64,000 nucleotides of DNA from Patescibacteria group bacterium (GTDB taxonomy: Bacteria; Patescibacteriota; Minisyncoccia; Moranbacterales; GWC2-37-73). The position numbers and the translations under genes were made by a program. Location: contig JAKLIO010000001.1 in NCBI GenBank assembly GCA_022709565.1, forward strand, positions 4,368-68,367, in the 5' to 3' direction. Positions 4,240 to 56,154 of the stretch are shown here, one piece after another. How positions within the stretch are numbered: position 1 is the first letter of the stretch; each line of letters begins with the position of its first letter. The notes below the pieces were generated by a model. That model searched no databases. It saw only the letters and a list, made by a program, of their open reading frames with translations, and was not told the DNA's origin.

Positions 4240-4680
4240 CTAACAACCTGTCGGTGCCTGCAGACCTCCATATAACCTTAAAAGCCATGCGCCATTACAA
4301 GCAGCTAAAGGATGGCCTGTTAAAGTAACTGTTATGGTAGGATCAGCAGCACTACAAGATGCTGTTTGTGCGTATGTAACACCTGTTGCTTTTAAATCAA
4401 CAGCTGTTGGTAAATTTGTTCCTATTCCAGCCCCACCAGCAGCAGCGCCATTGCTATCACAAATTTCTGCACCTGCAGTAGTGTTGAATGTAGCTCCTGT
4501 CTCAGAACAACAGGTGGCTATTGATGCTTTCAAACTGGCTAGAGTTTGTTTTGTAGACGAAGCTGTAGCTTTATTTCTGGCTGAACTAGTGCTAACCAGA
4601 ATAACCCCAGCCAAAATTCCGATGATCGCAATCACAATCAGAAGCTCGATCAACGTGAAACCTTTTTGCATTTTTTTCAT
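4240..4680 (-). CDS. type IV pilin (PilA-like), paralogue 2
   Basis: I place the start at ATG 4680 (MKKMQKGFTLIELLIVIAIIG), which is preceded by GGAGGTGTGAAATT. The track ORF (to 4749) adds 23 implausible residues. Confidence 0.85.
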   Translation of the reverse strand: MKKMQKGFTLIELLIVIAIIGILAGVILVSTSSARNKATASSTKQTLASLKASIATCCSETGATFNTTAGAEICDSNGAAAGGAGIGTNLPTAVDLKATGVTYAQTASCSAADPTITVTLTGHPLAACNGAWLLRLYGGLQAPTGC

Positions 4681-5000
4681 AATTTCACACCTCCTTCCGC
4701 CAATTTTGCCAAAATCTCCGATTTCGAAGCAAAATTGAGCGTCCGTCATTTCTCTTTAAAAACCCGTGGGTTTAAACCAAAATAATTATCACGTGTTTTT
4801 TGGAAAACATTGGATCGCCAATTTTCCTAAAAATCTTCAACCAATAACAAAATCTTTTTAATTTTTATTTTATCTTTATCCCATTATGACTTAAACAATA
4901 ATAACCGCATCGACAGCCAAACTAATTTTTTAAAATTAATTTGTCGAATTGAAATTATTACGAATTAAGTTATAACGGGATAAACTATCCAAATTTTATT

Positions 5001-27171: not shown

Positions 27172-28536
27172 ATGAACCCAGGAATCTTCAAGGCCTATGA
27201 CATCCGCGGCATCTACCCCTCCGAAATAAATGAGCAGGATGCTTACAAAATTGCCAAAGCTTATTGCAAATTTGTGAAACCCAGCGAGGTTGTCATCGGA
27301 TCAGATGTGCGTTTATCCTCCCCATCACTCAAAAAAGCCGCCATCAAAGCTGTCACGGATCAGGGAATAAAAGTAATCGACGTGGGAGAGATTTCCACTG
27401 ACATGCTCTATTTTGCCGTAGCCAATTACGGATATGCCGGAGGATTTTCCCTTACCGCTTCACATAATCCCAAGGAATATAATGGAGCAAAATTCGTACG
27501 CGAAGAGTCGCGACCAATTTCATCCGACACTGGACTTTTTGAAATTCGTGACATTGCCATGCAAGATACGTCTGAAATTAGCAACTTTGAATTGACGGAA
27601 GAAAATCTAAAGTTGATCGAAAAGAAAAATATAATGGATGATTACATAAACAAAATTAAAACTTTCGCTGATTTTTCTAAATTCAAAAAATTTAAGATTG
27701 TTGCTAATCCGAATTTCGGAGTGGCCGGCCGGGCTATTGATAGATTATTGGAAAACTCTGATATTGAAGTAGTCAAACTTAATTGGGAATCAGATGGCAA
27801 TTTTCCCAAGGGCCGTCCGGATCCATTAATACCAGAAAACCGAGAAGAAATTTCCAAATTGGTTGTGGAAAATGGGGCTGATTTCGGAGTAGCCTGGGAC
27901 GCTGATGCCGACCGCTGTTTCTTCTTTACAGAAAAAGGCGAATTTATTGAAGGCTATTTCATCACGGCACTCTTAGGAAAAATATTTTTAGAAAGAACGC
28001 CGGGAGCAACAATTTTGCATGATCCAAGATTAGTATGGGCAATTCAAGATATCGCCAAAGAAAACGGAGGTTCAGACATCATGACAAAATCCGGTCATGC
28101 TTTCATTAAAGAAAGGATGCGGAAAGAAAACGTGGTTTTTGGCGGCGAAATGAGCGCGCATTATTATTTTAAAGATTATTTTTTCTGCGACAATGGCTTA
28201 ATTCCCTTTGTAATGATGCTGGAATTTCTTTCAACGGAGAAAAAAACGCTTTCAGAAATCATGACGGAAATGTTCTGGAATAAATATTTTGTCAGTGGAG
28301 AAATCAACAGTGAAGTTTCTGACGTGAAAACAAAAATATCCGAAGCTAAATCAAAATATTCTCCGCAGGCTAAGAATGTTGATGAAACTGACGGCGTTTC
28401 CATAGAATTTGAAGATTGGCGTTTCAATCTGCGTGGCTCAAACACGGAACCGGTCATCCGTCTGAATGTCGAAGCAAAAACTAAAGAAAGGATGGAAGAA
28501 AAGAGAGATGAACTGCTGGAAATTATTAGAAAATAA
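27172..28536 (+). CDS. phosphomannomutase/phosphoglucomutase (alpha-D-phosphohexomutase family)
   Basis: Starts MNPGIFKAYDIRG, has the active-site loop TASHNPKEYNGAKF, and the Mg loop GVAWDADADR. I prefer the ATG 27172 start over the TTG at 27160. Confidence 0.88.
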   Translation: MNPGIFKAYDIRGIYPSEINEQDAYKIAKAYCKFVKPSEVVIGSDVRLSSPSLKKAAIKAVTDQGIKVIDVGEISTDMLYFAVANYGYAGGFSLTASHNPKEYNGAKFVREESRPISSDTGLFEIRDIAMQDTSEISNFELTEENLKLIEKKNIMDDYINKIKTFADFSKFKKFKIVANPNFGVAGRAIDRLLENSDIEVVKLNWESDGNFPKGRPDPLIPENREEISKLVVENGADFGVAWDADADRCFFFTEKGEFIEGYFITALLGKIFLERTPGATILHDPRLVWAIQDIAKENGGSDIMTKSGHAFIKERMRKENVVFGGEMSAHYYFKDYFFCDNGLIPFVMMLEFLSTEKKTLSEIMTEMFWNKYFVSGEINSEVSDVKTKISEAKSKYSPQAKNVDETDGVSIEFEDWRFNLRGSNTEPVIRLNVEAKTKERMEEKRDELLEIIRK

Positions 28537-28539
28537 TTT

Positions 28540-28576
28540 CAAAGTCTAAAGCTTAAAGTCTAATATCTAAATTAAG
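28540..28576. repeat. left inverted-repeat array (AAGTCTAA units) of four-helix-bundle cassette 1
   Basis: caaagtctaaagcttaaagtctaatatctaaa is complementary to the array at 28967-28995. Confidence 0.6.
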
Positions 28577-28581
28577 TATAA

Positions 28582-28944
28582 ATGCCTGCGTTTTTGAAGA
28601 ATAATTTAGAAGAAAGAACAACTAATTTTAGCAAAAAGGTTGTAATTTTTTTAAAGACAATAAAAAAAGACAATTTGAGTTTGCCTCTAATTAACCAGCT
28701 CGTAAGATCAGCTACTAGCATAGGCGCTAACTATTTTGAAGCTGGTGGATCCTGTTCAAAAAAAGACTTTAAAAATAAAATATATATTTGCAAAAAAGAA
28801 TGCAGAGAAACTAAATATTGGCTGGAGATTTTAGCCGAAGCTCATCCTGAATCTAAGAATATATGCAGGGAGCTATGGAAGGAAGCTCATGAATTAACTT
28901 TAATTTTTTCTAAAACAATCCTGACACTAGAAAATAAAAAATGA
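28582..28944 (+). CDS. four-helix-bundle protein (23S rRNA intervening-sequence protein family)
   Basis: Carries the family signature ..QLVRSATSIGANYFEAGGSCSKKDFKNKIYICKKECRETKYWLEIL... Confidence 0.85.
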   Translation: MPAFLKNNLEERTTNFSKKVVIFLKTIKKDNLSLPLINQLVRSATSIGANYFEAGGSCSKKDFKNKIYICKKECRETKYWLEILAEAHPESKNICRELWKEAHELTLIFSKTILTLENKK

Positions 28945-28966
28945 TAAATTTGAACTTTTTCAATTG

Positions 28967-28995
28967 TTTTAGACTTTAGATTTTAGACCTTAGCC
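28967..28995. repeat. right inverted-repeat array of four-helix-bundle cassette 1
   Basis: ttttagactttagattttagaccttagcc abuts the trpS stop codon. Confidence 0.6.
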
Positions 28996-29979
28996 TTAAA
29001 TGATGAATCCAACTTTCTTTTTCACTTCTTGCATTTTCTTTTCAGCAATCAATCGAGCCTTTTCCGCGCCTTCTTTTAATATCTTTATGACTTCTTCATC
29101 AGAATAAGAATTGTATTTTTGTTGGAAATCTTTCAAAAAAGAAACAACTATTTCGGCCAAATCATTTTTGAATTCTCCATAGCCTTTGCCAGCATACATT
29201 TTTTCAATATCTTTCGGACTTTTTTCGGAAAAAAAAGAATGAATGTTTATAAGATTTTTTAGCGCAGGCTTCTCTTCGCTATAAATTATTTCGCTGCCGC
29301 TATCCGTCACGGCTTTTTTTATTTTTCTACGTACTGATTCAGCGTCATCCAAAAGAGCAATGTAATTATATTCTGAAGAAGATGACTTATCCATTTTTTT
29401 TGTCGGATCATCAAGCCCCCTGATTCGCATCCCGCTTTTTTTCACAAATGGCTCTGGAATAACAAATGTTTCTCCAAAATTATTATTAAACCGCTTGGCT
29501 AAAGTGCGAGCCAGTTCTACATGTTGCACCTGATCCTCTCCGACTGGAACTTTTTCTGCATCATAAAGCAGAATGTCCGCGGCCATCAGAACCGGATAAT
29601 CATATAGACCAACACCGGCACTTTCCCTGCCATTTTTTTGAGACTTATCTTTGAACTGAGTCATCTTGTCCAAATCAGATACTCGAGCAACAGTATTTAA
29701 TATCCATGCCAATTCCGCATGCTCAGCTACTTGCGATTGAACAAATATGGCCGATTTTTTTGGATCAATTCCGGAAGCCAAATATATTTTCGCAATTTCA
29801 ATAGTCCTCTTATTTAAAGTCTTTGGATCTTGTGGAACTGTTATTGCATGCATATCAACGACACAAAAAACGGCTTCGTACTCGTCCTGAAAATCAAGCC
29901 AGTTTCTGATTGCACCGATATAATTTCCAATTGTAAGGCTTCCACTTGGCTTAATGCCCGAAAAAATTCGTTTTGCCAT
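28996..29979 (-). CDS. trpS: tryptophan--tRNA ligase
   Basis: Has FSGIKPSGSLTIGNYIGA (HIGH-region variant), KMDKSSSS (KMSKS) and GEDQ.QH. The 327-aa length fits. Confidence 0.93.
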   Translation of the reverse strand: MAKRIFSGIKPSGSLTIGNYIGAIRNWLDFQDEYEAVFCVVDMHAITVPQDPKTLNKRTIEIAKIYLASGIDPKKSAIFVQSQVAEHAELAWILNTVARVSDLDKMTQFKDKSQKNGRESAGVGLYDYPVLMAADILLYDAEKVPVGEDQVQHVELARTLAKRFNNNFGETFVIPEPFVKKSGMRIRGLDDPTKKMDKSSSSEYNYIALLDDAESVRRKIKKAVTDSGSEIIYSEEKPALKNLINIHSFFSEKSPKDIEKMYAGKGYGEFKNDLAEIVVSFLKDFQQKYNSYSDEEVIKILKEGAEKARLIAEKKMQEVKKKVGFII

Positions 29980-32870: not shown

Positions 32871-34253
32871 CTAACTTCTTTGATAGACATCCTCATATCT
32901 GACAATGTCATCCTCTTCCAAATAGTCTCCGGTTTGGACTTCGATAATTTCCAGATTGGTTTTCCCCGGATTGCCCAAGCGATGTTTGGTGCCTACCGGT
33001 ATGAAAGTGCTTTCATTTTCTTCAAGTGTCAACAAATCTTCGCCATGAACAATCTCGGCCGTGCCTTTGACAACCACCCAGTGCTCCGCCCGCCTGTTGT
33101 GCGATTGCAAACTCAGTTTCGCTCCGGGATAAACTGTGATTTTTTTGACTTTGTGATTATCTTCGTCAATCAGAACCTCGTATTTCCCCCATGGACGGTA
33201 GCCGATCACATTATCAGAAAGTTCCGGATAATTTTTTTCTTTGAGATATTCAACCACTTTTTTCACGCCATCATTGCTCTCGCCCATTTTTTGCACCAAA
33301 ATACTGTCATTGTTTTCAATCACAATCACGTCCTCAAGACCCGAGGTGACAATCAAACCATCGTTGACCGAATAAGCAAAAACATTTTTTGAGTCAATGG
33401 AAACATGTTTCGGATTTTCATCTTTTTTTCTTCCCAAGATTTCTGCCAGAACATCAAAACTGCCCACATCACTCCAATCAAAATCACCTTCAAAAGTTAT
33501 TAGCTTGTTTGATTTTTCAGCAATAGCATAATCAATTGCAATTGCCGGCAAATTCTGGAAATCCTTTAAAAAAGTATCGTAATCTTTTTCAAACAAGGAA
33601 TAGAATTCAGGCGCATGATTTTTCATTTCGTCAGCCAAAGTTTTTATATTGAAAAGATACATGCCGGCGTTCCATAGATATTCCCCGGAAGCAAAAAATT
33701 CTTCGGCTGTTTTTTTATCCGGCTTTTCCTTAAATGTTTCAACCTTGTAATAATCGCCTAGATTCTCTCCTTTTTTTATGTATCCAAAACTAGTGTCCGG
33801 CTTCGTTGGAACAATTCCTATTGTGCCGATATTGTCACCTATTTTTGAAAGCGCATTTTTGGCAATTTTAGCATAAGCCGGTCGATTGCCAATATAATGA
33901 TCGGAGTGTACTTCGATAATCGGCGCCGTTTCGTCTATTTTTATTACATCTTTAAGATATTTCGCAGCCAAAGCCAAGGCTGGCATATTATTCAAGCTTT
34001 TTGGTTCTTTGAGCACCTGACTTTCCAAAAAATCTGGATAGATTTCTCTGATCTGATTCAGGACATTGTAGTAATTATCTCCGTTAGTCACGAAATATAT
34101 ATTGGTTTCCGGCACAACCTCTTTCATTCTCAAAAACGTCTCTTGCAGAAGCGACTTGTCGCTATAAAGTTTCAGAAATTGCTTAGGAAAATTTTTTCTC
34201 GACAGCGGCCAAAGGCGTGTGCCTGATCCACCGCAAAGGATGATACTATGCAT
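32871..34253 (-). CDS. manC: mannose-1-phosphate guanylyltransferase / mannose-6-phosphate isomerase (bifunctional type)
   Basis: Starts MHSIILCGGSGTRLWPLSRKNFPKQF. The C-terminal cupin contains SLQSHNRRAEHWVVVKGTA. Confidence 0.88.
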   Translation of the reverse strand: MHSIILCGGSGTRLWPLSRKNFPKQFLKLYSDKSLLQETFLRMKEVVPETNIYFVTNGDNYYNVLNQIREIYPDFLESQVLKEPKSLNNMPALALAAKYLKDVIKIDETAPIIEVHSDHYIGNRPAYAKIAKNALSKIGDNIGTIGIVPTKPDTSFGYIKKGENLGDYYKVETFKEKPDKKTAEEFFASGEYLWNAGMYLFNIKTLADEMKNHAPEFYSLFEKDYDTFLKDFQNLPAIAIDYAIAEKSNKLITFEGDFDWSDVGSFDVLAEILGRKKDENPKHVSIDSKNVFAYSVNDGLIVTSGLEDVIVIENNDSILVQKMGESNDGVKKVVEYLKEKNYPELSDNVIGYRPWGKYEVLIDEDNHKVKKITVYPGAKLSLQSHNRRAEHWVVVKGTAEIVHGEDLLTLEENESTFIPVGTKHRLGNPGKTNLEIIEVQTGDYLEEDDIVRYEDVYQRS

Positions 34254-34263
34254 AAGTTTAAAA

Positions 34264-34306
34264 TTAATGACTAATTTCCAATGACTAATGACAAGTCAAT
34301 GACAAA
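34264..34306. repeat. left inverted-repeat array (ATGAC(T/A)AA units) of four-helix-bundle cassette 2
   Basis: aatgactaatttccaatgactaatgacaagtcaatgacaaag is complementary to the array at 34662-34715. Confidence 0.6.
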
Positions 34307-34319
34307 GTCCAAATAACAA

Positions 34320-34715
34320 CTAATACTTTCTCTTGGCAATACTAGAAAAAATAAGCGTTAATTCATGTGCTTCTTTCCATAATTTTCTACAATAATCAGC
34401 ATTGTTAGGTTCGGCAGTTGCTAACATATGAAGCCAATAGGTTGTTTCCTTAGACTCTTTTTTACAAATACCTATCTTATGAACAAAGTCCTTTTTTGAT
34501 TCTGCACAATCAGCCTCCATATAATTAGCGCCAATGCTAGTAGCGCTACGAATCAACTGGCTAGTAATTGATCTATTTATATTATTTTCTTTTATTTTTT
34601 TGACAAAAATTATAACCTCACAACCAAACTTAGATGTGCGTTCAGCTAAGTTGTATTTATTTTTGTCATTTTGATTTTGGTTTTGATTTGTCATTGGTAA
34701 TTTGTCATTTGTCAT
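34320..34715 (-). CDS. four-helix-bundle protein (23S rRNA intervening-sequence protein family)
   Basis: Carries ..SQLIRSATSIGANYMEADCAESKKDFVHKIGICKKESKETTYWLHML... The N-terminal MTNDKLPMTNQNQNQND is encoded by the repeat array. The start overlaps the pgi stop as ATGA. Confidence 0.85.
   Translation of the reverse strand: MTNDKLPMTNQNQNQNDKNKYNLAERTSKFGCEVIIFVKKIKENNINRSITSQLIRSATSIGANYMEADCAESKKDFVHKIGICKKESKETTYWLHMLATAEPNNADYCRKLWKEAHELTLIFSSIAKRKY
34662..34715. repeat. right inverted-repeat array of four-helix-bundle cassette 2
   Basis: tttgtcattttgattttggttttgatttgtcattggtaatttgtcatttgtcat. Confidence 0.6.
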
Positions 34716-35320
34716 TCTATGACTTCCAATCCACCTAAATCTTCTTTTTCGATTGATTTATACAGAGGATTTTTTTTGAGCGCCGGCTGGCCTTCGTGTT
34801 CAACGACATAATACGCAAAACCTCGCATTTTTTTGACCAATTCATAATCTGCATGTCCAGGAAAACTAACAGGATCGCGATCTTCAAAATCAACCGGACT
34901 GTCATCAGCCGTGGCAAAATAAGTCTGGCCGGTATTAACAACCAAGTGGCCTTCCTCGGGAGACATGAAAATTTTATCACCCACTTTAACTGGGATTGCC
35001 TTAAACTCCTCCACTTCGTCGGCAATCATCTGCCCCTCCGCATCTTTTTTTAATTTTTGCAAAAGAGCCACGCCTTCTCCGAAAATAATCCAGTAAGTTT
35101 CGCTCAAATCTCCGACGTGGTAATGACCGTACGTTTTAATATATTCTCCCGAAATTGTGCCTGGTTCCCAGACAGTGATATTTTTCTGATCAACTCCCCC
35201 GCGAATCATATAATAATGTATAGCTGGGCCAACACCCTTAGGATCCATCAAAACATCTTGCATTTTTTCCTGTGTTCGGGCTGCATAATGCTTGGGAACA
35301 TTTTTGAAATCTGTTTCCAT
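34712..35320 (-). CDS. pgi: cupin-type (archaeal-type) glucose-6-phosphate isomerase
   Basis: Has the TYGHYH metal motif, a cupin core of about 200 aa, and a position beside manC and the phosphohexomutase gene. The family was recognised from memory. Confidence 0.7.
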   Translation of the reverse strand: METDFKNVPKHYAARTQEKMQDVLMDPKGVGPAIHYYMIRGGVDQKNITVWEPGTISGEYIKTYGHYHVGDLSETYWIIFGEGVALLQKLKKDAEGQMIADEVEEFKAIPVKVGDKIFMSPEEGHLVVNTGQTYFATADDSPVDFEDRDPVSFPGHADYELVKKMRGFAYYVVEHEGQPALKKNPLYKSIEKEDLGGLEVIE

Positions 35321-37550: not shown

Positions 37551-38486
37551 TTAAACACTAAGTTCACCTATTTTTTTCTTAAACTGTTCGAAAATCTTCG
37601 GACCATGCGGATCAGGCAGGAAAATCAGCGCGTCATCATCGGCATAGACCATGCTTCCCTCTTGATGAGTTTTCGGATTTTTCATGATTCTTTGTTTTTC
37701 TGTTTTCTTAAGCATTTTTTCAATCCAGCCAAAAGACAAAATAATTTCACCCAAATTTCTGATGGCTTTGGAAAAAGCCGAATCGGAAATTATTTTCAGC
37801 GGAGGAATTTCAGAGATTCCGTAGGCAGGCTTTATTGATTTGATCCAAGAATTTCTTATTTGAAAACGCTTATAAGTTTCAAATCCATATATTGGAAAAA
37901 GAAACATATACTCGCTGGCAGAATACAGATCTTTCGTGCTTATTTCCAAAGACTCATCGGTTATAAAAAAATTGAGACAGACCCGGTCGGAAATTTTATT
38001 TCCGTGCCTTCTTTTTCTAAAAAGATGCAGCAGCAGTGTTGCCAATGTTCGTCCTGTCCAAATTTTACCCTGCTTGAAAACAAGCAAAATATCCAGATCG
38101 CTTTTGGCTTTGGCATTTTTCATGGCCAGCGCTCCGGTCACTCCAATCATCTTGATGAAAGGGACAAATCTGAGCAAATGAGAAGCTTTTAAAAGAATTT
38201 TCATCTTGCCCATGGAAATTTTATTATTCTTGATGCGCCTATCCACTAAAAATTTCCGTCCTTTCAAAAAGTAGAATCCGTTATGTTTTTCTATAAATTC
38301 AGCCAATTTTTCATCGGCCAGTTGTTTTGTAATTTCAGCCAGATTAATTTGCAATTCTTGTTTGTTATCCAAAAAATAATCCGTTCTGATTAAATATTTC
38401 CATATTTCAAAAGCCGTCAGCGGGTAGTCAAATCCGTCGTAATATATGATCGTCGCCAAAATGTGTTTATTAAGCTTGCTGGACAT
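37551..38486 (-). CDS. hypothetical protein, possible nucleotidyltransferase fold
   Basis: GVTGALAMKNAKAKSDLDILLV resembles the pol-beta-type NTase G[SG]...DxD motif, but the match is weak. Confidence 0.4.
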   Translation of the reverse strand: MSSKLNKHILATIIYYDGFDYPLTAFEIWKYLIRTDYFLDNKQELQINLAEITKQLADEKLAEFIEKHNGFYFLKGRKFLVDRRIKNNKISMGKMKILLKASHLLRFVPFIKMIGVTGALAMKNAKAKSDLDILLVFKQGKIWTGRTLATLLLHLFRKRRHGNKISDRVCLNFFITDESLEISTKDLYSASEYMFLFPIYGFETYKRFQIRNSWIKSIKPAYGISEIPPLKIISDSAFSKAIRNLGEIILSFGWIEKMLKKTEKQRIMKNPKTHQEGSMVYADDDALIFLPDPHGPKIFEQFKKKIGELSV

Positions 38487-38487
38487 A

Positions 38488-38533
38488 AATTTCGTATCTA
38501 GTATCTAGTATTTCGTATTTCGTATTTCGTATC
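38488..38533. repeat. short-period GTATTTCGTAT / GTATCTAGTAT array
   Basis: atttcgtatctagtatctagtatttcgtatttcgtatttcgtatc lies directly 5' of 168-bp repeat copy B. Confidence 0.6.
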
Positions 38534-54984: not shown

Positions 54985-55232
54985 CACCTGAAAAATTTTA
55001 AAAGCTAAATTTTAAATTTTAATTGAATTTTAAATGATTTAATCCATTAAAACATTTAATCATTAAGATTTGATTTAAAATTTTAAATTTAAAACTTAAA
55101 ATTATTATCAGTATTTGTTTAATAAAATATAAAAAAATCACAAAGCGTTTTTTAAAAACTCTAATGTGATTTTACAAAGTTATAAGAAAGCGATTTAAGT
55201 TTAAGCCAAAACAACCAACAGGTCCTGCTCAA

Positions 55233-55739
55233 ATGCGCATTAATGACGGCATCAGAGCTGTTCGCGTTTTTGTCATTGATGAAATGGGAAAACAGCTGGG
55301 AGAAATGGCAATTTTCGAAGCCATAGCCTTGGCTAGAGAGCACATGTTGGATCTGGTTGAAGTTTCGCCCAAAGCCGTCCCACCCGTATGCCGCATCATG
55401 GATTATGGCAAGCAACTCTACCAGCAGTCTAAACAAATGCGGATTGCCAAGACTAAGCAGAAAAGAGTTGAAACGAAAGGCGTGCGCCTGGGAGTCAGAA
55501 CCGACACCCATGATCTTAATTTCAAAAAAGCACAAGCCGAAAAATTTTTGGGCCACGGCGACAAGGTCAAGATAGAAATCGTGCTCAAAGGCCGTGAAAA
55601 AGCTCATCAAGATTTAGCCAGAAAAAACCTGCAAGATTTTATTTCAGGAATAACCGCTCCCTACAAGATCGAAGAACAGATCAAAAGATTCCCTGGAGGA
55701 TTCAATGTTATCCTCGCTCCAACTGAAGAACAAAAATAA
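55233..55739 (+). CDS. infC: translation initiation factor IF-3
   Basis: Reads RINDGIRAVRVFVIDEMGKQLGEM...LDLVEVSPKAVPPVCRIMDYGK. The frame is open back to 55170, so a non-ATG start such as ATA 55182 is possible. Confidence 0.9.
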   Translation: MRINDGIRAVRVFVIDEMGKQLGEMAIFEAIALAREHMLDLVEVSPKAVPPVCRIMDYGKQLYQQSKQMRIAKTKQKRVETKGVRLGVRTDTHDLNFKKAQAEKFLGHGDKVKIEIVLKGREKAHQDLARKNLQDFISGITAPYKIEEQIKRFPGGFNVILAPTEEQK

Positions 55740-55740
55740 T

Positions 55741-55846
55741 TTCTAATTTTCAATTTATAATTTCTAAGCAATTCCCAATAATTCAATTTCAAAATTCAAA
55801 AATTTAAGCATTGTTTGAAAATTGAAAATTGAGAATTGAAAATTTT
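55741..55846. repeat. cargo-less inverted low-complexity array (TTCAAAA arm / TTGAAAA arm)
   Basis: ..attcaatttcaaaattcaaaaattt.. is complementary to ..tttgaaaattgaaaattgagaattgaaaatt... It lies between infC and rpmI. Confidence 0.6.
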
Positions 55847-56123: not shown

Positions 56124-56154
56124 CTAAAAGCTAAAAGCTAGAAGCTAAAAGCTA
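56124..56154. repeat. short-period GCTAAAA array
   Basis: ctaaaagctaaaagctagaagctaaaagcta lies just upstream of rplT. Confidence 0.55.

Follow-up and report, generated by a model that had tools for sequence, protein, structure and literature searches.

In the current work, we describe cassette 2, a compact genetic element lying between two sugar-nucleotide genes, pgi and manC, in a 64,000-nucleotide stretch (hereafter, the window) of contig JAKLIO010000001.1 from a Patescibacteria group bacterium (assembly GCA_022709565.1). The element measures approximately 450 bp and consists of a gene for a four-helix-bundle protein enclosed by inverted arms of degenerate heptamer repeats. Intervening sequences (IVSs) of 23S rRNA genes, together with the S23p open reading frames (ORFs) found in them, have been known since the early 1990s, and to our knowledge neither the function of the IVS ORF nor the route by which IVSs spread is understood. 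We think it probable that cassette 2, and likewise a second copy in the window (cassette 1), is an element of this rRNA-IVS type that has come to reside in a protein-coding operon. Comparison with related loci identifies cassette 2 as an old insertion at the pgi stop codon that was inherited by two sister lineages.

Cassette 2 is read from the minus strand, on which all of the coordinates in this paragraph lie. By direct reading, its four-helix-bundle ORF (34320..34715) encodes 131 amino acids from the first methionine (Met1) and begins MTNDKLPMTNQNQNQND, while the probable coding sequence, according to a start-codon census, is 34320-34694, or 124 amino acids from Met8. In the orientation of the transcript, the 5′ arm (34663..34716) was delineated by a repeat finder and by Tandem Repeats Finder (TRF) as a run of degenerate heptamers (AATGACA, AATGACA, AATTACC, AATGACA, AATCAAA, and onward), and it contains the pgi stop (34714-34712), Met1 (34715-34713), and the conserved Met8 (34694-34692). 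The 3′ arm (34266..34319) is composed of heptamers complementary to those of the 5′ arm (its transcript reads ...TTTGTCATTGACTTGTCATTAGTCATTGGAAATTAGTCATT); it begins directly after the TAG stop codon of the ORF and stops 12 nt short of the ATG of manC. According to the repeat finder, the arms are 54 nt each, 76% complementary, and 343 nt apart, and they flank the ORF exactly, with the left arm reaching up to the stop codon; the TRF units are TAATGAC and ATTTGTC, both of period 7. An earlier note on this DNA had recognized these arms, which are real, but had set the left coordinate 2 nt early (AATGAC begins at 34266, not 34264). The host gene upstream is pgi, which encodes a cupin-type glucose-6-phosphate isomerase (GPI; 34712..35320; PF06560; 202 amino acids), and the one downstream is manC, encoding a mannose-1-phosphate guanylyltransferase / mannose-6-phosphate isomerase (32871..34253; 460 amino acids; PF00483, PF22640, PF01050), so that the neighbors named in that note, which placed the cassette in a sugar-nucleotide operon (pgi-cassette-manC), are confirmed by their Pfam assignments (PF06560; PF00483 and PF01050). 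The TGA stop of pgi forms part of the first arm heptamer and, as the same note had pointed out, shares the tetranucleotide ATGA with the first ATG of the cassette ORF; the C-terminus of GPI is unchanged in length relative to relatives that have no cassette. A promoter and terminator scan gave no signal between pgi, cassette 2, and manC, with overall counts not above those in shuffles.

Evidence for insertion comes from related loci retrieved in metagenome and genome scans (designated here by L-numbers). A metagenome scan with GPI as the query returned 80 loci, among which an empty site—that is, pgi followed by manC after 7-25 nt—is present in L096, L099, L101, L102, L114, L122, and L159 (GPI 71-83% identical). 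The contiguity of pgi and manC in relatives, which had been proposed as a check, is thus found in seven loci, so the cassette interrupts the pair. A cassette occupies the pgi-manC site in just L004, L014, and L095, which represent a sister species (GPI 86% identical) with the locus order SecG, SBP_bac_5, GPI, cassette, ManC, RNase J; there, the cassette protein is 83% and ManC 84% identical to its counterpart in the window. Homologues with 82% and 79% identity sit in unrelated contexts, the surroundings being genes of unknown function in L001 and a GT4 glycosyltransferase gene and holB, on either side of the cassette, in L009. When the DNA of four loci was aligned, homology started at AATGACAAATG and stopped at GGAAATTTGTCATT, which are the outer ends of the arms (AATGAC... 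and ...GTCATT). The empty sites in relatives, the restriction of the occupied site to the sister species, and the coincidence of the boundaries with the arm ends together argue for an insertion bounded by the arms. On this comparison, cassette 2 was acquired at the pgi stop codon by the common ancestor of one sister species and this Moranbacteria-like lineage, and the ancestral state is pgi followed directly by manC. By the same kind of comparison, the pgi-manC spacer has been hit independently in other lineages: in L110 (about 4600-4775), heptamer arrays flank the decayed C-terminal part of a four-helix-bundle ORF (...KEECRKFWQEVQELTLIFSKII...), and in L097 (3610-3698) the spacer contains an ORF-less heptamer hairpin.

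The anatomy of the element matches that of rRNA IVSs in most respects. For example, the IVS of the Coxiella burnetii 23S rRNA gene is 428 nt long and has an S23p ORF, a 28-bp terminal inverted-repeat stem within which RNase III excises the sequence, and three tandem GACAGAT heptamers before the ATG (PMC4990558). Its ORF is decaying and apparently untranslated, and older proposals relayed in the same paper hold that IVSs are, or derive from, mobile DNA, with the ORF serving mobility (PMC4990558). Cassette 2 resembles the 23S IVSs with S23p ORFs of Coxiella, Leptospira, Haemophilus, and Brucella in its size (about 430-450 nt) and in having a PF05635 ORF enclosed by terminal inverted repeats (PMC4990558). 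With the Coxiella IVS it shares tandem heptamers around the start codon at the 5′ end (GACAGAT in Coxiella, GACAAAT in cassette 2), and with 23S IVSs generally the lack of a convincing Shine-Dalgarno sequence and a sporadic distribution that implies horizontal spread. Unlike those IVSs, which lie in 23S rRNA at helix 25 or 45, it lies between the protein-coding genes pgi and manC; its arms are longer (about 54 nt) than the Coxiella stem but just 76% complementary, and its ORF, unlike the decaying one of Coxiella, is under strong purifying selection. ORFs of the 23S_rRNA_IVP family are also found in insertions of the 16S and 23S rRNA genes of the Candidate Phyla Radiation (CPR) (PMC11270868). 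Since location alone sets cassette 2 apart from the rRNA IVS class, it is classed as a variant of the IVS type.

The assignment of the protein to this family is well supported. Cassette 2 scores 56.2 bits against PF05635 (23S_rRNA_IVP / S23p), for which the cut-off is 33.8, and 79.1 bits against the NCBIfam model TIGR02436 “four helix bundle protein” (cassette 1, 79.2 bits; cut-off 24), and the family profile matches PDB 2RLD with an E-value of 1e-17. An AlphaFold2 (AF2) model of the monomer (mean predicted local distance difference test score, pLDDT, 85.8) places helices at residues 23-39, 47-69, 74-101, and 103-128 and leaves residues 1-20 disordered; Foldseek template-modeling (TM) scores, normalized on the target, are 0.86 for 2RLD, 0.81 for 2GSC, and 0.71-0.73 for Avd (8UB7, 4DWL), to which sequence identity is just 14%. 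Pfam, NCBIfam, PDB 2RLD, and the AF2 model therefore agree with the original description of a four-helix-bundle gene, and PF05635 has been recognized as Avd-like (PMC10053308). In codons 21-131, nonsynonymous divergence (dN) is 0.08-0.16 and synonymous divergence (dS) ranges from 0.7 to saturated, with a ratio (omega) of 0.04-0.17, indicating that the protein core is functional and under strong purifying selection. Homologues of the protein number in the thousands. No PADLOC defence model matched the cassette protein, and a scan of viral contigs with the family alignment, using narrow patterns, found no relative.

The arms pair with each other better than expected by chance, as they had been predicted to do in comparison with shuffled controls. 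In a fold of 477 nt of minus-strand RNA, they are paired in both the minimum free energy (MFE) and the centroid structure (z = -3.0, with 0/100 shuffles as stable), and the duplex formed by the 100-nt 5′ and 3′ flanks reaches -41.7 kcal/mol, versus -27.0 kcal/mol in dinucleotide shuffles (z = -3.7, 0/100). The same property extends across the family. A scan of one genome per species yielded 80 loci, mostly from Patescibacteria, with a few from Dehalococcoidia, Zixibacteria, Desulfobacterota, Calditrichia, and one Bathyarchaeia bin. Among 85 distinct cassettes, the flank duplex had a median z of -3.6 against dinucleotide shuffles, and values fell below -3 in 55% and below -2 in 75%, so the repeat arms that homologous cassettes elsewhere were expected to carry are indeed present. 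Self-identity at lag 7 in these 85 cassettes is 0.49-0.50 in the arms, compared with 0.32 for the outer flanks. It peaks again at lag 14, and the lag-7 peak is present in both arms of both window cassettes. Unit types differ by subfamily (AATGACA, AATGTCA, AATTTCC, AAAATCC, AAAGCTC, AATTTTT, and others) and have their mirror image in the cognate 3′ arm, which is the best partner of its 5′ arm in 7/85 cassettes and among the top five in 22/85, where about 1 and 5 would be expected. The position relative to neighboring genes is also consistent: in 51 of the 66 loci with usable flanks, the cassette lies within a few nucleotides of the stop codon of a long upstream ORF on its own strand. The median interval from the end of that ORF to residue 21, at the arm edge, is 65 nt, which places the upstream stop at the outer edge of the 5′ arm, approximately 18-26 nt before the conserved start. 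An opposite-strand ORF alone lies upstream in just 2/66 loci, and the downstream ORF is co-oriented in 50 and convergent in 6.

These features bear on where translation begins. In the start-codon census, an in-frame ATG is present at the Met8 position in 51/80 cassettes and at the Met1 position in 17/80; because Met8 is present in more cassettes, it (34694) is the likely start, rather than the Met1 of the ATGA overlap, and the NCBI annotation of the identical protein, “four helix bundle protein [Candidatus Moranbacteria]”, also begins at Met8. The ATGA overlap is then a by-product of the AATGACA heptamer. Translational coupling to pgi through that overlap, as the earlier note had it, therefore holds only in part: Met1 is in frame in too few cassettes (17/80) to make the overlap a general device, but coupling to the upstream gene is plausible since, in most loci, the conserved start follows the upstream stop by approximately 18-26 nt. 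Similarly, the arm does supply the N-terminus of the ORF when read in frame from Met1, but it does so incidentally. In the arm-encoded codons 1-20, the nonsynonymous and synonymous proportions of differences are about equal (pN ~ pS) and pS is just 0-0.4, which, in combination with the modeled disorder of these residues, argues for constraint as nucleic acid and not as protein; the 5′ arm is accordingly best described as constrained at the level of its nucleotide sequence, with its translation incidental.

On these grounds, a working model can be proposed for the IVS-type element. Having no promoter or terminator of its own, cassette 2 would be transcribed together with pgi and manC, and its protein would start at Met8 within the 5′ arm. 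Termination of a ribosome at the pgi stop, which precedes Met8 by 18 nt, would unwind the outer part of the stem, so that translation is probably coupled to that of pgi; in untranslated transcripts, the arms would form an interrupted stem. RNase III would then cut this stem and separate the cassette RNA from the host message, by analogy with the IVSs of Coxiella, Leptospira, and Salmonella, while during movement the arms would have acted in cis as the ends delimiting the unit. Like its homologue Avd, the protein is probably a pentamer that binds nucleic acid, and the heptamer arrays may be its target. We infer from the anatomy of the element and from the rRNA precedent that RNase III processes the stem, that translation is coupled to that of pgi, and that the protein binds the arms.

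Several results weigh against the IVS-type reading, and above all against a role for the RNA stem. In an alignment of the 14-sequence subfamily, no covariation above shuffles was detected (71.2% paired versus 71.0% shuffled, 187/500); this test used 54 pairs taken from the arms of the window's own cassette 2, and the score equalled that of shuffles. Pairing in register does exceed that in slid registers (30-44%), for a structure derived from one alignment row. Several arm mismatches are conserved within the subfamily, and at the sense-strand arm mismatches of 62 cassettes there is no excess of G.U: 88 G.U stand against 125 A.C, an imbalance (binomial p 0.013) opposite in direction to that expected from selection on an RNA stem. 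The cassette 2 stem, with runs of 6, 4, and 8 bp at its base and a complementarity of just 76%, falls short of that of Coxiella. In the sister species, the arms at the orthologous locus (L004/L008) no longer pair beyond shuffles (z -0.7); the 3′ arm there is 52% identical to that of the window and has an extra insert of approximately 27 nt, whereas the ORF is intact and the 5′ arm retains 91% identity. This comparison indicates that the two arms are under unequal constraint and, because the arms have decayed while the ORF is intact, that a resident cassette does not need the stem. Moreover, no rRNA was detected by Rfam around the cassette in 20 loci without a long same-strand ORF ending just upstream; an RNase III signature motif was not found in the six-frame ORFs of the window, whose 64 kb are uninformative genome-wide; no target-site duplication was consistent by eye in nine junction pairs; and no near-identical copies at different sites were found among the copies compared. 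The comparative data, in sum, give no positive support for an RNA stem under selection. The junctions were read in the window and in L001, L004, L009, L016, L020, L022, L024, and L025, where the flanks are AT-rich and the insertions old. Synonymous sites are saturated between all of the copies compared, which means either that movement is old or that its recent products are unsampled.

What is conserved in the arms was also assessed among 14 subfamily relatives. Mean pairwise identity is 0.83 in the 5′ arm, 0.86 at codon positions 1 and 2, 0.71 in the 3′ arm, 0.54 at third codon positions, and 0.33 in the outer flanks. With both arms conserved, the 71% pairing of the subfamily is fully explained without covariation, and the proposal that complementarity, rather than arm sequence, is the conserved property is not supported at this level: the arms of the subfamily are conserved in sequence (0.83 and 0.71 versus 0.54). 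Paired change of both arms is seen only between subfamilies, and the heptamer pattern is common to all of them. The arms are thus real and constrained; what the constraint preserves may be an RNA stem, the DNA ends of the unit, or the two together.

The alternative that draws most on these observations is a purely DNA-level mobile cassette—that is, a mobile insertion cassette or miniature inverted-repeat transposable element (MITE) with a passenger gene—in which the heptamer arrays are terminal inverted repeats for a recombinase acting in trans or for the four-helix-bundle protein itself, and RNA pairing is a by-product. Conservation of both arms beyond the needs of pairing, the conserved mismatches, the missing covariation and G.U bias, the persistence of the ORF at a long-resident orthologous locus where the arms have decayed, and the sharp homology boundaries in different contexts next to the existence of empty sites are all as this alternative would have them. 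However, no transposase was found in or beside the cassettes at the loci inspected, and neither recent copies nor target-site duplications came to light; heptamer arrays are unlike known transposase-binding inverted repeats, and the studied relatives, the rRNA IVSs, are processed as RNA stems (PMC4990558). We regard a purely DNA-level cassette as possible, if rather unlikely. It is compatible with the IVS-type reading, from which it differs solely in whether the RNA stem matters.

Retention of the cassette since the split of the sister species could instead reflect benefit to the host, with the stem-loop uncoupling or tuning pgi and manC and the protein acting as an RNA-binding regulator. Consistent with such a module, the protein diverges about as slowly as GPI and ManC (83% versus 86% and 84%) with omega at about 0.05-0.15, and both window cassettes adjoin sugar-nucleotide genes (pmm in one case, pgi and manC in the other). 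Elsewhere, however, the cassette adjoins unrelated genes (holB, a glycosyltransferase gene, a tRNA gene, and genes of unknown function), most relatives have pgi-manC without it, and some copies are pseudogenes or fragments (L022, L025, L110), all of which makes a host-beneficial module improbable. Still less can be said for the view that the ORF is an ordinary resident gene of the host with nothing mobile about it, that its flanks are simply another instance of the heptamer-filled spacers of the genome, and that their inversion is incidental. It is true that period-7 arrays are common in window spacers (as detected by TRF) and even occur in recG, that direct heptamer arrays precede unrelated starts (rplT; manC in L100, L115, and L123), and that such arrays are known from other bacteria (PMC4679880, PMC4692102); but in unrelated contexts the ORF is still accompanied by its arms, which are conserved in sequence and sharply bounded, cognate arms beat shuffles in most of the 85 cassettes and are each other's best partners more often than expected, the pgi-manC site is empty in relatives, and the architecture matches that of rRNA IVSs. 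The contexts, the arm statistics, and the empty sites already largely refute this explanation, which we hold to be very improbable. Finally, an Avd accessory gene of a diversity-generating retroelement shares its fold and family with the cassette protein (Bordetella phage Avd, 8UB7 and 4DWL; TM 0.71-0.73; PMC10053308) but is hardly credible here, as neither a reverse transcriptase nor a template/variable repeat adjoins either cassette, no long direct repeats surround cassette 2, the neighbors are pgi, manC, an SBP_bac_5 protein gene, RNase J, pmm, and trpS, and identity to Avd is just 14%.

The IVS-type element can also be set beside several other known systems. Avd forms a pentamer that binds retroelement RNA and reverse transcriptase; the cassette protein resembles it as a homologous four-helix bundle (4DWL, 8UB7) and departs from it in sequence and in the lack of retroelement components nearby. 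Repetitive extragenic palindromic (REP) sequences and their hairpin-forming doublets (REPINs), with the associated tyrosine transposases (RAYTs), are dispersed hairpins that occur alongside copies in which the same repeats, inverted, enclose a gene, and the Correia elements of Neisseria are RNase III-processed MITEs that are co-transcribed with neighboring genes. As in REPIN/RAYT and Correia elements, ORF-less hairpins coexist here with gene-carrying copies bearing inverted repeats; unlike in REPIN/RAYT, the cassette gene is of no known transposase kind, and the units vary from site to site within one genome. As in a MITE or a mobile insertion cassette, terminal inverted repeats bound the unit at different sites, and relatives have empty sites. 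Free-standing TIGR02436/PF05635 genes, such as those for 2RLD of Bacteroides thetaiotaomicron and 2GSC of Xanthomonas campestris, share the family, the fold, and the occurrence of several copies per genome; the literature found on them deals with the proteins only and mentions neither flanking heptamer inverted repeats nor insertion at stop codons. Intergenic heptamer arrays have been described for TAACTGA in Beggiatoaceae, cyanobacteria, and Bacteroidetes (PMC4679880) and for GGGAATC in Xanthomonas and GGGGA(C/T)T in Nostoc, with about 70 of the arrays in Xanthomonas forming convergent (inverted) pairs (PMC4692102). The cassette arms share with these arrays the period of 7, the 2-10 units in spacers, and a location often just before starts (PMC4679880, PMC4692102); the unit sequences differ, and neither paper mentions four-helix-bundle genes or intervening sequences. 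In a literature search that was incomplete with respect to subscription journals, so that a prior description is possible, we found no account of heptamer-flanked four-helix-bundle cassettes outside rRNA.

The IVS architecture, an ORF within terminal inverted repeats built of heptamers, is thus present as a self-contained insert in the ordinary operons of very small CPR genomes and not just in rRNA, with at least two copies in the 64-kb window, a protein under strong purifying selection, and insertions at the stops of co-oriented genes. If the classification is correct, the IVS problem is thereby moved out of its special rRNA context, with thousands of natural variants available for comparison, and a link is made between three separately described phenomena: the intervening sequences of rRNA, the Avd-like proteins, and the abundance of heptamer repeats beyond expectation in the genomes of some bacteria. 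A further step, which we offer as a conjecture and consider doubtful, is that the four-helix-bundle protein and the heptamer arrays form one system resembling REPIN:RAYT, with gene-carrying cassettes as its autonomous forms and ORF-less hairpins as its non-autonomous ones; the latter would include the elements after tmRNA, in infC-rpmI, within recG, and in the pgi-manC spacer of relatives. The protein, as a pentamer, would recognize heptamers in DNA or RNA and would drive or sustain their dissemination to the 3′ ends of genes and to rRNA loops. Such a system, if true, would give rRNA IVSs both a function for the ORF and a mechanism of mobility.

Cassette 1 (28541..28997, plus strand) comprises a 5′ arm of AAAGTCT type (28541-28582), an ORF (28582-28944), and a 3′ arm (28957-28997), and it occupies the interval from the end of the phosphomannomutase gene (stop at 28536) to that of the convergent trpS (stop at 28996-28998). 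Its ORF encodes 120 amino acids, is 56% identical to that of cassette 2, and is the sole paralogue among the window ORFs (phmmer, E 7e-40), in keeping with the view that both cassettes have the same architecture—an ORF of the same family between heptamer inverted arms. Its statistics are weaker (fold z -1.8; duplex z -2.6, 1/100 shuffles). The repeat units of the two cassettes had been reported as different; they do differ in sequence, but the unit is a heptamer in both, being AAAGTCT and not an 8-mer in cassette 1, where TRF gives period 7 for the 3′ arm (TTTAGAC). At gathering thresholds, Rfam found just tmRNA and four tRNAs in the whole window, with no rRNA and no match at either cassette. 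Two ORF-less heptamer hairpins on the plus strand may be relatives of the cassettes: one (54991..55106) lies directly 3′ of the tmRNA gene and has 53-nt arms, 77% complementary, around a 10-nt loop (z -3.7, 0/200), and the other (55738..55844), in the infC-rpmI spacer, has 35-nt arms, also 77% complementary (z -2.4).

Other heptamer arrays in the window are of a different kind. The recG ORF (24788-27013, plus strand) contains an in-frame heptamer block (25835-25932; AATTTCC x4.3 followed by AAAATTC-type units) that translates as ...NNFQFPISNFQTNPNFQNSKLKIQSKFKIRNSKL..., forms a weak hairpin (z -3.0), and looks like a heptamer element tolerated within the gene. Direct arrays stand just before starts, namely CTAAAAG x4.4 before rplT (56124-56154) and TCGTATC x6 (38492-38533) before an ORF at 37551-38486 (minus strand), and in L100, L115, and L123 direct arrays of different units stand just before manC; no Shine-Dalgarno sequence is visible there, and the arrays resemble the TAACTGA repeats of Beggiatoaceae and cyanobacteria (PMC4679880). 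The recG block and the arrays before start codons were considered as cassette arms and rejected, the arrays being direct rather than inverted or the hairpins weak.

Finally, several single loci add detail to the census. In L019, the cassette (3001 onward) lies directly 3′ of a tRNA gene (2913-2984) and not of a protein-coding gene. Two cassettes are pseudogenes, L022 by a change of TGG to TGA (column ~245 of the alignment) and L025 by an in-frame TAA (column ~370); their arms are still well paired, with duplex z values of -4.4 and -6.2, respectively. In L026, L029, L056, L061, and L090, a second copy of the 5′ arm with its ATG, followed by a 3′ arm, is found within the first ~100 nt past the stop; this second pair resembles a cassette that has lost its ORF and stands in tandem with a complete one, which hints at the origin of the ORF-less hairpins. 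Six loci of about 5.2-6.4 kb each (L034, L038, L049, L054, L062, and L072) contain two four-helix-bundle genes of different subfamilies, the second copies being 31-53% identical to the query, which suggests, as do the two copies in the 64-kb window, that cassettes reach high copy number in very small genomes.

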